Below are positions 4,703 through 31,363 of a stretch of 31,363 nt of DNA, piece by piece. The notes beneath the pieces were generated by a model. That model was not told where the DNA came from. It did no database searches and saw nothing but the letters and a program-made list of their open reading frames with translations. The stretch comes from a virus. The DNA lies in IMG/VR virus record IMGVR_UViG_3300016667_000055, positions 1-31,363 of that record; one strand, written 5' to 3'. A program made the translations under genes and the position numbers. Position 1 is the stretch's first letter; each line of letters starts with the position of its first letter.

Positions 4703-4864
4703 ATGAAAACTATAATAAGCAGATTAACAATGAAGGTCAAACGACATTTATTTTGTGACCATATAAGCGGTGAAGGAGTCTTTTTGTATGAAGACAAATA
4801 TGGGCAAGAATGGATGGCAAACTACCCATTTAGGATTTGGTCTTTTAGAGTAAAAAGTAATTAA
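4703..4864 (+). CDS. Small hypothetical protein (53 aa)
   Basis: The ATG at 4703 follows junction repeat copy 1. The track start at 4655 would overlap the upstream gene by 47 nt. Confidence 0.5.
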   Translation: MKTIISRLTMKVKRHLFCDHISGEGVFLYEDKYGQEWMANYPFRIWSFRVKSN

Positions 4865-4882
4865 CATTTAAATCAGAATAAG

Positions 4883-5002
4883 ATGGAAACAACTTTAATT
4901 ATTGAAGCAAAAATGACAGATGAACAATTAGAAGTTCTTGTATCTGAAATAAAAAAAATTTCAGAAATAATTGGAATTGAATTAACCTTTAAATCAGAAT
5001 AA
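4883..5002 (+). CDS. Small hypothetical protein (39 aa), hand-found
   Basis: The ATG is supplied by junction repeat copy 2. It ends TFKSE-TAA inside copy 3, the same C-terminus as ORF 4489..4701. Confidence 0.45.
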   Translation: METTLIIEAKMTDEQLEVLVSEIKKISEIIGIELTFKSE

Positions 5003-5003
5003 G

Positions 5004-5189
5004 ATGAATGAACTAAAACTAATGGGTTACTATATTAATTGCACCCGAACTGACCAAGTCGTACAAATTAAAGACTTACAACGTGGGCGCGTATGGTACG
5101 AAGTAATCAGGCAACACGACAGAAACACGATTACAGATTTTTGCTGTACGGAACAAAGATTTAAGAACCTATATATTCAAAAGAAATGA
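5004..5189 (+). CDS. Hypothetical protein
   Basis: ORF track; the ATG is supplied by junction repeat copy 3. Confidence 0.5.
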   Translation: MNELKLMGYYINCTRTDQVVQIKDLQRGRVWYEVIRQHDRNTITDFCCTEQRFKNLYIQKK

Positions 5190-5371
5190 AAGATAGCATC
5201 GTTGAATCAGTGATAAACAAGTTTAAAGACCGTTCTAACGTAGGAATACAGAAATACGGAACAACACTAGACAGAAATGATTTAACGCACTTAGAATGGA
5301 TAAATCACGCACAAGAAGAAGCAATGGATTTTATCCTGTATTTAGAAAAATTAAAACAAATAAATAAATAA
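5186..5371 (+). CDS. Hypothetical protein (possibly like a small MazG/dNTP-pyrophosphohydrolase N-domain)
   Basis: KYGTTLDRNDL..W..HAQEEAMDFILYL pattern; weak recognition only. Confidence 0.4.
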   Translation: MKDSIVESVINKFKDRSNVGIQKYGTTLDRNDLTHLEWINHAQEEAMDFILYLEKLKQINK

Positions 5372-5373
5372 AA

Positions 5374-5604
5374 ATGGAAAAGAGAGACAACAGCGGTGTA
5401 TTGTTCACTAACGACAAAAGACAAAAAGAAACACACGCACACTATCAAGGTAAGGCAACAATCAATGGAGTTGAGTATTACGTTTCAAGTTGGGTAAAAG
5501 ACGGAGCAAAAGGTAAATATCAAAGTCTAAGTTTCAAACCAGTTCAAGAAACAGCGAAACAACCTCAAAAGAGCGGATTTGATGACTTTTTAAATGGCTT
5601 ATGA
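5374..5604 (+). CDS. Hypothetical protein
   Basis: ORF track; tightly coupled to its neighbours. Confidence 0.5.
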   Translation: MEKRDNSGVLFTNDKRQKETHAHYQGKATINGVEYYVSSWVKDGAKGKYQSLSFKPVQETAKQPQKSGFDDFLNGL

Positions 5605-5804
5605 TAGAATCACACGTATTAAGCAATATAAACGATATAACGCGGAATTTAATTAATGTATATATTCAAAAACACGGAATAACATTAAACGCATTTTCTA
5701 AGTTAGTCGGAATTAGACAACCTATATTATTCAAGTTTATGAACTACCAAAATAATATGAGTACAAAAACGATTGAAAAAATAGGTAAATTTTTTAACAA
5801 TTAA
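5601..5804 (+). CDS. Small HTH DNA-binding protein (XRE-like)
   Basis: ITLNAFSKLVGIRQPILFKFMN...STKTIEKIGKFF resembles helix-turn-helix. Confidence 0.45.
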   Translation: MIESHVLSNINDITRNLINVYIQKHGITLNAFSKLVGIRQPILFKFMNYQNNMSTKTIEKIGKFFNN

Positions 5805-5883
5805 GGCTCTGGTAAACCAACAGAAAGATCGCTATGGTTAAAGGATTGTAAAACACGGTCGCCCACACTTAGCGGTTATTTTC

Positions 5884-8676: not shown

Positions 8677-9105
8677 ATGGCAAAAAGAGGTAGACCAAGA
8701 AATTTAGATAGTCCAGAACAATTATACGAACTATTTGAAAAATATAAAGCCAACGTAAAGGCGAATCCAAGACTAAAAATAATACACGGGGGTAAAGACT
8801 TCGAAGAAAGAGTAGAACCATTAGAATGCCCTCTAACTATGGAGGGTTTTGAAATTTATTGCTGGGATGAGGTAGGTGAAGTAGAACAATATTTTAAAAA
8901 CGTTGATAAAAGATATTCAGAATATATCCCTATCTGTTCACGTATACGCAAAGAAATACGTCAAGACCAAATAACAGGCGGTATGGTAGGACAGTATAAC
9001 GCAAGTATTACACAACGCTTAAACAACCTAAAAGAACAAGTGGAACAAACGAATATTGAACAACCGTTATTTAAACTAGATGATAATAACGACAGCAATT
9101 CGTAA
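8677..9105 (+). CDS. terS: Terminase small subunit
   Basis: N-terminus MAKRGRPRNLDSPEQLYELFEKYK is typical of terS. It lies immediately upstream of terL sequences. Confidence 0.7.
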   Translation: MAKRGRPRNLDSPEQLYELFEKYKANVKANPRLKIIHGGKDFEERVEPLECPLTMEGFEIYCWDEVGEVEQYFKNVDKRYSEYIPICSRIRKEIRQDQITGGMVGQYNASITQRLNNLKEQVEQTNIEQPLFKLDDNNDSNS

Positions 9106-9157
9106 AATAAACGCTTTAAAAAAACGAATCAAAATAATACAACAAGGGTGTTGTTAA
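9080..9157 (+). pseudogene. Truncated 5' remnant of terL (copy 1; 25 codons then stop)
   Basis: Encodes MIITTAIRKINALKKRIKIIQQGCC-stop. The first 23 residues are nearly identical to the peptide encoded from 9726, and the copy is truncated where the P-loop should start. Confidence 0.7.
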
Positions 9158-9184
9158 TATAAAAAACTTTCGTATATTTGTGTT

Positions 9185-9757
9185 ATGGAAATATGGCAAC
9201 AAATAAAAGGATTTGAAAACTTATATAAGATTTCTACCTACGGAAGAATTAAAAGTTTGGGAAATGGTAAAAGCACTAATTCTAAAACAAAATTTGAAAG
9301 GATTTTGAAAAGCAATTATTCTTCAACTGGATATGAAAAGATAAAACTTTTCAAAGACGGCAAAAGATATTATTTTTCAGTTCATAGATTAGTAGCTCAA
9401 ACTTTTTTATCAAACGATAAAAACAAAAAAGAAGTTAATCATAAAGACGGAAATAAAGCAAATAATAATGTGTCTAATTTGGAATGGGTAACTTCAAGTG
9501 AAAATCAATTACACGCTTTTAAAAACGGATTGCAAAAGAGCAAAATGGGTAAAGACCATATTCAGTCTAAAAGTGTAAGGCAATTAGATTTAAATGGAAA
9601 TGTAATTCGTACATTTGAAAGCATTAAACAAGTTCAAAGAGAATTAGGATTTAATACATTTGGAATAATTAAGTGTTGTAAAAAAGTAAAAAAATACAAT
9701 ACTGCGTATAAATTTAAATGGGAATATGATAATAACAAGTGCTATACGGAAGATTAA
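9185..9757 (+). CDS. HNH homing endonuclease (NUMOD4 / HNH_3 / C-terminal DNA-binding module, I-HmuI-like)
   Basis: EIWQQIKGFENLYKISTYGRIKS; HRLVAQTFL...VNHKDGNKANNNVSNLEWVTSSENQLHA. It is inserted within terL sequence. Confidence 0.85.
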   Translation: MEIWQQIKGFENLYKISTYGRIKSLGNGKSTNSKTKFERILKSNYSSTGYEKIKLFKDGKRYYFSVHRLVAQTFLSNDKNKKEVNHKDGNKANNNVSNLEWVTSSENQLHAFKNGLQKSKMGKDHIQSKSVRQLDLNGNVIRTFESIKQVQRELGFNTFGIIKCCKKVKKYNTAYKFKWEYDNNKCYTED

Positions 9758-10925
9758 CGCCTTAAAGAAACGGATTAAGATAATCCAAGGCGGTACTTCC
9801 GCTATTTAACCCCCTATGAATTAAGTAGTAGGGGGTGACAATGCAGGAAAAACTTATGGTATACTTCCTATACTAATCACAAAGGCTGCTACATATCCAC
9901 GAATGGAAATAAGCGTAGTTGCTGAATCAATACCTCATTTGCGTAGAGGTGCGTTAAAAGACTTTCTAAAAATAATGAAAGAAACGGGGCGCTACTTTGA
10001 TGAACGGTTTAATAAGTCACTTTTAAGATATGAGTTTGCAAATGGTTCTGTAATAGAGTTTTTTAGTGCTGATGACAGTTCTAAATTAAGGGGTGCAAGG
10101 CGTGATGTACTGTACATAAACGAATGTAACAACGTAACCTTTGAATCTTACAACGAACTTGCAATACGTACAAAGAAAGAAGTCTATTTAGACTTTAACC
10201 CAGCAAATGAATTTTGGGTGCATACGGAACTAAAAGACGAACCCGATAGCGACTTTCTTATTTTAACCTATAAAGACAATGAAGCTTTAGATAATAGTAT
10301 TGTTCAACAAATAGAAAAAAATCGCTTAAAAGCCGAAACAAGCGCATACTGGAGTAACTGGTGGCGTGTTTATGGATTAGGTGAAATAGGAATGCTTGAG
10401 GGCGTTATATTCAGCAACTGGAAAATAATTGACAAGCTACCAACCGAAGCTAAGTTAATAGGAATCGGTTTAGACTTCGGATATACAAATGACCCGACTG
10501 CAATAATTGAAGTTTACAATTATAACGGAACACGGATACTCAATGAATTAAAGTATCAAACAGGAATGTTAAATTCAGACATCGCAAAAATACTACCAAA
10601 AAACGTGGTGGTATATGCAGATAGTTCCGAGCCTAAATCAATAGATGAAATAAGACGCTATGGAATAACGATTAAAGGCGTTACAAAGGGCAAAGACAGT
10701 ATTAATTATGGAATTGATGTAATACAACAACAAGAATATTTAGTAACCTCACAAAGCGTTAATTTTATTAAAGAACTTAGAGCATACTGTTGGGATGTAG
10801 ATAAACACGGAACACGCTTAAACAAACCTATCGACAATAATAACCACGGAATAGACGCATGGCGTTATCATGAAATGGAAACACTAGGTTTAAAACGCAA
10901 TTACGGAACATATAATATACGTTAA
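9726..10925 (+). CDS. terL: Terminase large subunit, reading frame interrupted by two in-frame TAA codons (9807, 9822) inside the Walker A region
   Basis: The same frame encodes MIITSAIRKINALKKRIKIIQGGTSAI*PPMN*VVGGDNAGKTYGILPIL...GARRDVLYINECNN...NPANEFWV, which follows the PBSX/Terminase_3-like pattern. No start codon lies between the second stop and the GKT codons. Confidence 0.75.
9795..9836 (+). other. 42-nt intervening cassette in the terL P-loop (hairpin plus two stops); exact boundaries ambiguous within the flanking GGN GGT repeat
   Basis: Hairpin CCCCCTA (9810-9816) / TAGGGGG (9829-9835). It is flanked by GGCGGT (9789-9794) and GGGGGT (9831-9836), which are 42 nt apart. Confidence 0.6.
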
Positions 10926-31009: not shown

Positions 31010-31363
31010 ATGACTCAAAAAAAACCTTTCGTAAAAATCAACATCGAAGACCTTGAATATGCCAAGGAATTTTTCGATAATATAGCCGATTATTCTATTT
31101 GGTTATATGCTGTTACTGAATATTATTGCGGTAATGAAGTTCAAATAAAAAAGAAAATCGTAAAAAAATATTTCGATAATTACAAAAAGACGATGAATAT
31201 CGTTCTTGAAGCTAAAGAGTTTGGAAAAAAAGGTGCATTGAAACGCATTGAAAAACAACAAGTTAACATTGATACCCTTGAAGACCCCCTACAATACCCC
31301 CTTAAAGAGACCCTTACAGTAAATAATAAAGTTATAAATAATAAAGATAAAGAAGTAATTAAT
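31010..31363 (+). CDS. Replication-associated protein, N-terminal part (continues at nt 23 after removing the 22-nt overlap; about 211 aa in total)
   Basis: From ATG 31010 there are 118 codons open to the window end with no stop. The last 7 codons equal codons at nt 2-22. Confidence 0.65.
   Translation, partial: MTQKKPFVKINIEDLEYAKEFFDNIADYSIWLYAVTEYYCGNEVQIKKKIVKKYFDNYKKTMNIVLEAKEFGKKGALKRIEKQQVNIDTLEDPLQYPLKETLTVNNKVINNKDKEVIN

Follow-up and report, generated by a model that had tools for sequence, protein, structure and literature searches.

The window analysed here is the whole of IMG/VR virus record IMGVR_UViG_3300016667_000055 (positions 1 to 31,363; 31,363 nucleotides [nt]), and in it we found that terL, the gene for the large terminase, carries a free-standing HNH homing endonuclease gene between two copies of its own 5' end and, further on, a 42-nt non-coding insert that splits the codons of the Walker A motif (P-loop). 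Comparison with related sequences suggests that this is probably a homing-endonuclease cassette of the phage T4 mobA/gene 60 type, whose target-disrupting insert would be skipped by translational bypassing. What is established is the anatomy of the locus, the existence of uninterrupted (naive) alleles, the repeated occurrence of the insert and its conservation, and purifying selection on genes that carry it.

Anatomy of the interrupted terL locus

The features of the terS–HNH–terL region are as follows (aa, amino acids; a slash marks the position of a gap in a motif):

8677..9105, + strand: terS, small terminase gene, 142 aa (Pfam GP3_package, PHROG 606)
9080..9142, + strand: copy 1, leftover 5' end of the resident terL, codons 1-21 (direct repeat; match to naive allele L001)
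9143..9184, + strand: cassette 5' block, non-coding, a degenerate Walker A remnant (CAAGGGTGTTGTTAATATAAAAAAC...) ending in the promoter-like box TATATTTG
9185..9757, + strand: free-standing HNH homing endonuclease gene, 190 aa, I-HmuI-like (Pfam, PHROG 59)
9726..9803, + strand: copy 2, cassette-borne terL segment 1, codons 1-26, MIITSAIRKINALKKRIKIIQGGTSA (closest to the 5' ends of other gap-bearing alleles)
9801..9803, + strand: proposed take-off codon GCT (Ala26), synonymous with the last gap codon in 17/18 variants
9804..9845, + strand: 42-nt coding gap, splitting Walker A as GGTSA/GKT, absent from naive alleles
9809..9836, + strand: hairpin with a 9-bp stem and a 10-nt loop (RNAfold, covariation)
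9830..9838, + strand: Shine-Dalgarno-like AGGGGGTGA, made up of the 3' arm of the hairpin and TGA, 7 nt before the landing codon
9843..9845, + strand: proposed landing codon GCA (Ala), after which decoding would restart at GGA 9846 (Gly27)
9846..10925, + strand: terL segment 2, codons 27-385 and stop, beginning GKTYGILPILI (joined protein matches relatives)

The sequence-only reading of this DNA had copy 2 running into an intact terL, which is not the case, as the insert lies within the Walker A codons. The copy 2 open reading frame (ORF) ends after 27 aa at TAA 9807-9809, and terL resumes in the same frame at GGA 9846. Between these points lie ATT TAA, the hairpin, and TGA CAAT GCA, a stretch that has two stops in frame and leaves none of the three frames free of stops. 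ORF analysis found no in-frame start codon ahead of the GKT codons, nor any before ATG 9903. ORF prediction yields terS at 8677-9105, 25 aa at 9080-9157 (MIITTAIRKINALKKRIKIIQQGCC, then a stop), the endonuclease at 9185-9757, 27 aa at 9726-9809 and 340 aa at 9903-10925. Joining 9726-9803 to 9846-10925 instead gives a 385-aa TerL that is 97% identical to P0001 over 100% of its length and aligns with Pfam Terminase_3 straight across the junction; among the window proteins, TerL was identified by Pfam Terminase_3 and Terminase_3C and by PHROGs. Since there are stops in three frames, no start before the GKT codons, and a joined protein that matches the Pfam model, the gap must be skipped. Its hairpin pairs 9809-9817 with 9828-9836 (ACCCCCUAU / GUAGGGGGU) and folds in RNAfold at -21.9 kcal/mol (z = -3.9), and AGGGGG occurs only once on the + strand of the window, in the AGGGGGTGA region. 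RNAfold also pairs the flank of the proposed take-off site, UUCCGC (9797-9802), with that of the landing site, GC-AGGAA (9843-9849), in an outer helix that joins both junctions; similar outer pairing is predicted for alleles L053, L005 (2 bp) and L006, and not for Gly-type variants.

A repeat search and a codon comparison agree with the earlier description of a terL 5'-end duplication around the HNH gene that differs almost only synonymously, and the ORF coordinates agree that copy 1 overlaps the end of terS and copy 2 (ATG 9726) the end of the HNH gene. The direct repeat comprises 63 nt (9080-9142 versus 9726-9788; 78% identical, spacing 646). When an extra CAA (Gln) codon of copy 1, placed at the junction with the cassette 5' block, is dropped, 22 codons can be aligned: 8 are identical, 13 differ synonymously at the third position, and one differs non-synonymously (ACA Thr in copy 1, AGT Ser in copy 2). 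Judging from the encoded protein, the repeat is not due to chance, because both copies specify the N-terminus seen in more than 100 homologous TerL proteins. The first 32 nt of copy 2 overlap the 3' end of the HNH gene, whose C-terminal coding sequence (...KWEYDNNKCYTED and a stop) runs out of frame through codons 1-10 of copy 2 (9726-9757), so that some of the synonymous differences between the copies are also under HNH-frame constraint. The out-of-frame HNH stop, GAAGATTAA, is still present in the gap-only alleles L004 and L053.

Alleles without the HNH gene, which the sequence-only reading had proposed to look for, exist and prevail (L001-L003; 75/80 related viral loci). In L001-L003 the HNH gene is absent and terS directly overlaps terL; in the window, too, the last 26 nt of terS overlap the resident terL start, the same layout as in naive relatives such as L001, the 30-kb contig that encodes the closest relative TerL, P0001. 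More than 100 TerL homologues are exactly 385 aa long with a contiguous GGTSAGKT, read ...KRIKIIQGGTSAGKTYGILP..., and are 88-97% identical over their full length. In a DNA alignment, the HNH block and the 42-nt block are clean insertions relative to naive alleles. Copy 1 matches naive L001 at 61/63 nt and copy 2 at only 51/63, while copy 2 is 87% identical to the gap-bearing allele L004 and, at the start of terL, 84-87% identical to other alleles sharing the 42-nt insert. By these identities, copy 1 is the resident gene start and copy 2 arrived on the cassette, which bears out two further claims, that the cassette brought a terL 5' end from a diverged lineage and that it entered in the P-loop coding region.

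The HNH protein has the Pfam domains HNH_3 (3.3e-11), NUMOD4 (1.3e-9) and NUMOD1 (1.7e-5), a weak I-HmuI_NUMOD-like match, and a match to the PHROG 59 HNH endonuclease at 4e-46. Its gene is sporadic: L001-L003 and nearly all of the 80 related loci lack it, and the gap-linked segment is more similar among carriers than the terL gene body is. We infer from these sequences that the enzyme cleaves naive Walker A DNA site-specifically and that carriers are immune, the latter because both of their Walker A copies are disrupted. The replication module of the window holds a second free-standing HNH gene (1804-2277, + strand, 157 aa; NUMOD4, HNH_3, AP2-like), 39% identical to the terL-associated one, with a TATATTTG box at 1703, about 100 nt upstream.

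The 42 nt before the HNH gene had been read as the decayed tail of copy 1. The resemblance of 9143-9184 to Walker A coding DNA stands, while decay in place does not, as the block recurs before HNH genes elsewhere: CAAGG[GT][TG]G...TATATTTG-N3-4-ATGGAAA precedes HNH genes 47-88% identical to that of the window in L570, L571, L018 and L572, which belong to other terL lineages. Because of this recurrence, 9143-9184 is to be seen as the conserved 5' end of the cassette. The TATATTTG box that had been noticed 4 nt before the HNH ATG is indeed there, at 9173-9180. The Bacteroidota -7 promoter consensus is TAnnTTTG, and TATATTTG fits it as a putative promoter-like box; given that only 4 nt separate it from the ATG, the HNH mRNA may be leaderless. 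On the + strand of the window there are about 12 such octamers, for the most part between genes and 20-30 nt ahead of an ORF (1142, 1703, 3082, 5937, 8257, 9173, 14645, 29622, 29696, 29823, 30890). The window has no AGGAGG, and its 5 GGAGG sites are all on the + strand; together with the TATATTTG boxes, this scarcity points to a Bacteroidota host. The closest cultured relatives are the Flavobacterium phages FpV/FPSV, Flavobacterium phage 11b and Cellulophaga phi10:1, and the hosts are likely Bacteroidota. No tRNA genes were found in the window. Its first 22 nt (1-22) are repeated exactly at its end (31342-31363), which suggests a circularly closing assembly and a complete genome of about 31,341 bp.

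A recurring family of gaps

Pattern scans and protein-guided retrieval brought together about 20 distinct variants of the gap, in three or four terL lineages, grouped here into three families, and in a split family-B DNA polymerase (PolB):

terL family A, GGTSA/GKT: window, L004/L073, L053-56, L383, L570, L571
terL family A', GGTSAG/KT: L010 group, L019, L028, L021
terL family B, GGAA/GGGKS: L005, L008, L037, L500, L509, L527, L530, L532
split family-B DNA polymerase, QLA/LKLVLNGSYG and QLAL/KLV...: L006, L453, L014 group

The gaps always lie in a conserved motif, and in any one gene their positions differ by no more than one codon; joining the flanks restores the motif exactly in every case, and the joined proteins align with Pfam models across the junction. 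Among the retrieved relatives, the insert is carried by about 6% of family A loci and about 8% of family B loci. The 635-kb phage genome LR745206 has a gap-less counterpart of the polymerase ORF. In this genome (L576; LR745206.1 129074-133492) and in L006, L014 and L453, PolB is split, and a separate ORF begins about 33 codons before motif B, gap or no gap.

The variants share an architecture and differ in almost every part of it. Gap length is 37-44 nt, in 9/18 variants not a multiple of 3, and each gap, read in the incoming frame, contains one stop or more. A sense codon (GCU, GGN or CUU) stands just before the gap; then comes a 5-nt linker, usually NNU UA, that makes the stop the second codon. 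The hairpin has a C5/G5 core with a variable inner stem and loop (in one variant a GCAA tetraloop), and from the G-run to the landing codon there is in all variants a spacer of 6-9 nt (7 nt in the window) that is 67-89% A/U. In 17/18 variants, the last gap codon has the same first two bases as the codon that precedes the gap (GCT/GCA in the window), and wherever such pairs differ, L532 aside (n = 9), they do so at the wobble base only (GCU/GCA/GCG, GGG/GGA, GGU/GGA, CUU/CUA).

Covariation supports the hairpin: in 15 variants, pairing holds for 94% of cells, compared with 52-66% after the partners are slid, and 0/500 shuffles match this. The closing pair is A-U in 9, G-C in 4 and U-A in 2 variants and couples the last base of the "stop" triplet with the base that follows the stem, so that TAA...TGA becomes TAT...AGA or TAG...CGA. 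Folding energies range from -19 to -27 kcal/mol (z -2.3 to -5.8). A covariance model, R1, was built from the 15 variants and run over 3.9 Mb of DNA, made up of L001-L577 (about 240 decoy hairpin loci among them) and the window. All known cases came back, at 38.8-62.8 bits, with one false positive (L458, 41.9 bits, no ORFs), and no new host genes turned up in this set. A generic scan of viral contigs for CCCCCT-N-AGGGGGTGA hairpins, which served as a negative control, gave 120 loci and no convincing interrupted gene. Scans of genome and metagenome collections for TAACCCCCT...AGGGGGTGA (at least 120 loci each) gave, among the matches listed, mostly ordinary GC hairpins, with L383 (terL) and L453 (PolB) as the only additions and no bacterial host, and among those listed for the TAG...C variant there was no new case. 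Likewise, no cultured phage with the insert was found, terL being uninterrupted in Flavobacterium phage 11b, Cellulophaga phi10:1 and the FpV/FPSV phages. Contigs L141 (851, 1384, 7546, 10808) and L160 (2814, 3347, 4992) carry 3-4 copies each of a 37-nt CCCCCT...AGGGGGTGA hairpin, which looks like a different, dispersed repeat element.

The interrupted genes bear the marks of selection. Gap-bearing alleles of family A have a ratio of nonsynonymous to synonymous divergence (dN/dS) of 0.05-0.08 at a gene-body dS of 0.9-1.7, with the 42-nt gap 90-98% identical, and for the window terL dN/dS is about 0.05 against relatives. By these sequence measures, the interrupted terL genes are functional and under purifying selection.

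The link of the gap to an endonuclease is recurrent as well as labile. The full layout (copy 1, CAAGG block, HNH gene, copy 2, gap) is found also in L570 and L571, two further terL sublineages, and in the window, L570, L571 and the L010 group the interrupted segment is directly preceded by related HNH genes (53-88% identical); copy 1 is lost in the L010/L018 group. A second HNH_3 type stands upstream of the gap-bearing terL in L005 and L509, and a NUMOD3, GIY-YIG-like ORF does so in L021. Many alleles consist of the gap alone with the endonuclease gone, and L004 retains about 25 nt of the HNH 3' end as a scar. L055 and L056 look like recombinants between copy 1 and copy 2 of an L570-like genome in which the HNH gene was lost. 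The earlier suggestion that synonymous divergence of the two copies would suppress loss of the cassette therefore holds at most in part, since these recombinants and the L004 scar speak against full prevention.

Further endonuclease genes stand near these loci. In L089 and L108 (2026-2510) and in L572 (1501-2022), a related HNH gene lies between terS and terL with neither a duplicated 5' end nor a gap; the terL P-loop of these three lineages differs (GGTAASKT, GGTNAAKT), and immunity there may come from sequence divergence. In L014, the gap-bearing split PolB has directly upstream of it, on the opposite strand, a 367-aa ORF (4734-5837, + strand) with DUF7487 repeats (YGVDSYxKT) and, at its C-terminus, an HNH-like motif; this ORF may represent another insert-linked endonuclease family.

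Skipping of the gap and alternative explanations

From 5' to 3', the region consists of a resident terL start truncated after codon 21, a degenerate Walker A remnant with its promoter-like box, the HNH gene, copy 2 and the insert, followed by the resident terL body. In a mixed infection, the HNH enzyme would cut the Walker A coding DNA of naive terL alleles, and repair from the carrier genome would copy the cassette: conversion from copy 1 to the terL body would move all of it, and conversion from copy 2 onward the insert only. The carrier would be protected by having one target copy decayed and the other split, and the synonymously diverged, foreign copy 2 would push recombination out to copy 1, so that the HNH gene is co-transferred. 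TerL translation would begin at the copy 2 ATG; at GCU-26, the peptidyl-tRNA(Ala) would detach from the mRNA, the ribosome would pass the hairpin, and the tRNA would re-pair at GCA 9843-9845, 7 nt past the G-rich Shine-Dalgarno-like arm, with decoding restarting at GGA to give the normal 385-aa TerL. We infer GCU 9801-9803 as the take-off and GCA 9843-9845 as the landing codon, and the duplicated junction codon is the strongest pointer to bypassing, as re-pairing of a retained peptidyl-tRNA needs such a duplicate and RNA excision would not. Candidates that we tried and rejected include ATT as the true take-off codon, the A site then being occupied by TAA, a reading that has no matching landing codon, concerns a freely varying codon (TAA in L527) and would add a P-loop residue, and internal re-initiation, for which no in-frame start precedes the GKT codons.

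Several observations weigh against bypassing. The stop is mostly the second codon past the take-off site (AUU UAA in the window) and follows it immediately only in L527; in L053-L056, L570 and L571 it is replaced by UAU or UUU, with a compensating change of the hairpin partner. The hairpin leaves out the take-off codon, starting 5 nt past it, and takes in no more of the stop than its last base, whereas in T4 the GGA UAG lies inside the stem. No common nascent-peptide signal is apparent across the host genes, the upstream peptides differing between the terL families and PolB; that of terL is the native N-terminus, rich in Lys/Arg. Flavobacterium ribosomes make little use of Shine-Dalgarno pairing, and since Bacteroidota hosts are likely, guidance of landing by the G-run is uncertain. 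The exceptional variant L532 (2079-2127) has GTA (Val) as the last gap codon, giving GCT/GTA; re-pairing of its tRNA-Ala would need a G-U pair at the middle position, unless the allele is decayed or the sequence in error. Finally, the CCCCC/GGGGG core of the hairpin was partly imposed by our search patterns, although variants found by homology show it too.

The same facts can be read in other ways, and the main rival to bypassing, which also counts against it, is that the 42 nt are cut out of the mRNA by some cleavage-ligation or splicing at the hairpin, leaving a contiguous terL message. Exact removal would restore the motif equally well, the hairpin with its conserved flanks (UA before, G/A-A after) could be a recognition element for a protein or an RNase, and the predicted pairing of the take-off and landing flanks would unite the two junctions. 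We nevertheless consider excision unlikely. A self-splicing intron or an intein was rejected, as the gap has 42 nt where a ribozyme core takes at least about 200 nt, stops lie in all frames, and an Rfam search of 8900-10100 at E up to 10 gave nothing relevant; the small gap and the missing Rfam match together make an intron unlikely, and the 37-44 nt of the whole family are far below group I/II intron size, again with no Rfam family match. To our knowledge, no bacterial system splices out such short mRNA segments, which counts against this explanation. Excision would also have no need of a synonymous duplicate of the junction codon, yet 17/18 variants keep one with wobble changes only, and it would leave unexplained why a G-run and an A/U spacer stand at a start-like distance. 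Another possibility is that the insert is translated, by stop readthrough, reassignment or paired frameshifts, and adds residues to TerL. The window gap is indeed in frame at 42 nt; against this, gap length is divisible by 3 in only half of the variants, several frames contain stops, TAA serves as the chief genuine stop of the genome (22/31 long ORFs), and 14 added P-loop residues would destroy GxxxxGK[ST], which makes translation of the insert the least credible of the explanations considered.

It is also highly improbable that terL is simply broken, with a defective phage or a pseudogene in which the insert is a neutral scar of endonuclease activity, even though the reading frame holds two stops and ORF callers give only a 340-aa ORF that lacks the P-loop. 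The 359 downstream codons are intact, with 97% protein identity and the low dN/dS given above; the insert has been kept across dS 0.9-1.7 and occurs in other genes and lineages with compensatory stem changes; its flanks always restore the motif exactly, and the genome assembles as a circle. Low dN/dS, the conserved gap, circular closure and TAA as the main stop thus make a pseudogene or an artefact very unlikely. Just as little probability attaches to the HNH protein being a packaging accessory nuclease, as in HK97-like cos phages, with the duplication incidental. HNH genes beside terS and terL are widespread and some are needed for cos cleavage (PMC3592412). The gene in the window is, by contrast, absent in nearly all close relatives, where terS overlaps terL, and it encodes the NUMOD4, HNH_3 and NUMOD1 domains of I-HmuI-type homing enzymes; in other gap-bearing lineages its place is taken by another HNH_3 type or by the NUMOD3/GIY-YIG-like ORF. 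A duplicated target-gene segment on both sides and the paralogue at 1804-2277 likewise disfavor a packaging role.

Known bypass systems and implications

The closest parallel to the proposed bypass cassette is the phage T4 mobA element with the 50-nt translational bypass of gene 60, which Bonocora and colleagues are said to have described in 2011. In both systems, an HNH homing endonuclease in an essential gene is accompanied by its own diverged neighbouring segment (in T4 "homR," 67-81% identical to the parental sequence) and then a short gap. In the gene 60 homologues as Manning and Atkins characterize them, too, take-off and landing codons are paired with wobble-only differences, the insertion position shifts by about one codon, a stop lies near the gap start, the stem-loop covaries and in some cases has a GNRA loop, and an SD-like triplet lies 5-7 nt before the landing site with an A/U-rich spacer. 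Some alleles of T4 relatives keep the gap after loss of the endonuclease, and other endonuclease families take over. Manning and Atkins (bioRxiv 10.1101/2022.08.31.505936) describe the mobA element as an endonuclease plus diverged "homR" plus bypass, with independent insertions, endonuclease loss and replacement, and the gene 60 homologue cases there are only in Topo2L.

The differences from T4 are substantial. Here the host genes are terL at Walker A and PolB at motif B, not topoisomerase II, and the phages likely infect Bacteroidota, whereas those of the T4 type are gammaproteobacterial myoviruses; covariance model R1 detected no sequence similarity to the T4 gene 60 locus (L575). The take-off codon is not part of the hairpin, which starts 5 nt further downstream; the stop usually comes after one sense codon; the hairpin 3' arm doubles as the SD-like run; the gap is 37-44 nt long; and no common nascent peptide is evident. 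Moreover, the host gene is not split into two subunits, since the cassette provides a complete new N-terminus and start, leaving a useless 25-aa ORF upstream. T4 mobA is a defective fragment.

In the mitochondria of Magnusiomyces capitatus, a yeast, "byp" elements of 27-55 nt that derive from GC clusters have reportedly been found (Lang and colleagues, 2014), and PMC10732093 mentions them too. Like the phage inserts, byps are short mobile inserts in several protein genes with matched take-off and landing codons, a stem-loop and apparently no gene-specific nascent peptide; unlike them, they belong to yeast mitochondria, are present in many copies per genome, and have no linked homing endonuclease or SD-like element. 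The phage inserts, for their part, occur as one copy per phage genome and always at a conserved motif targeted by an endonuclease. In the terminase of Streptomyces phage Hau3, 10-nt inserts have been put forward as candidates for UUA-triggered bypassing (PMC10732093). These are likewise non-coding blocks at conserved junctions of a large-terminase gene, and they differ in their length of 10 nt, in starting with the rare UUA codon, in their proposed role as a lysis/lysogeny sensor, and in having neither a GC hairpin nor an endonuclease cassette. Free-standing or intronless homing (T4 seg/mob, I-HmuI family) also involves a sporadic endonuclease in or beside a conserved gene with flanking co-conversion, and in "fractured genes" with split inteins (PMC2677866), an endonuclease-borne accessory device restores the host protein. 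Compared with intronless homing and with fractured genes, the restoring device here would be a duplicated 5' coding segment plus a skipped gap, with no intron, intein or plain intergenic site. In the full texts that we searched, bypass cases were limited to gene 60/Topo2L homologues, the Hau3 candidates and byps, and in none was a GC hairpin combined with terL Walker A or PolB motif B, so that within this literature the gap family appears to be undescribed.

We lean, with some reserve, towards a broader interpretation, in which these gaps make up a new family of ribosomal bypass ("hop") elements, self-contained and fairly widespread in Bacteroidota phages, and serve as a homing-linked immunity device that outlives its endonucleases and works in unrelated genes without a dedicated nascent peptide. 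Such an element would be made up of a take-off codon, a 5-nt linker, a GC hairpin with an SD-like 3' arm, an A/U spacer and a synonymous landing codon. Efficient programmed bypass of tens of nucleotides in bacteria has so far been essentially one element, T4 gene 60 and its topoisomerase homologues. A second, non-homologous family would span other essential genes and hosts with different use of Shine-Dalgarno pairing, and its approximately 20 natural variants would allow a comparative test of the signals that bypass needs, including hairpin position, stop codon, SD-like run and nascent peptide.

Gene callers split or truncate gap-bearing terL and polB, which affects phage annotation and metagenome terminase phylogenies. 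The gap family would also lend weight to the view that inserts of this sort evolve to serve homing endonucleases as immunity devices, and, if our interpretation is true, gene 60-type hopping would be a recurrent evolutionary solution instead of a singular oddity.

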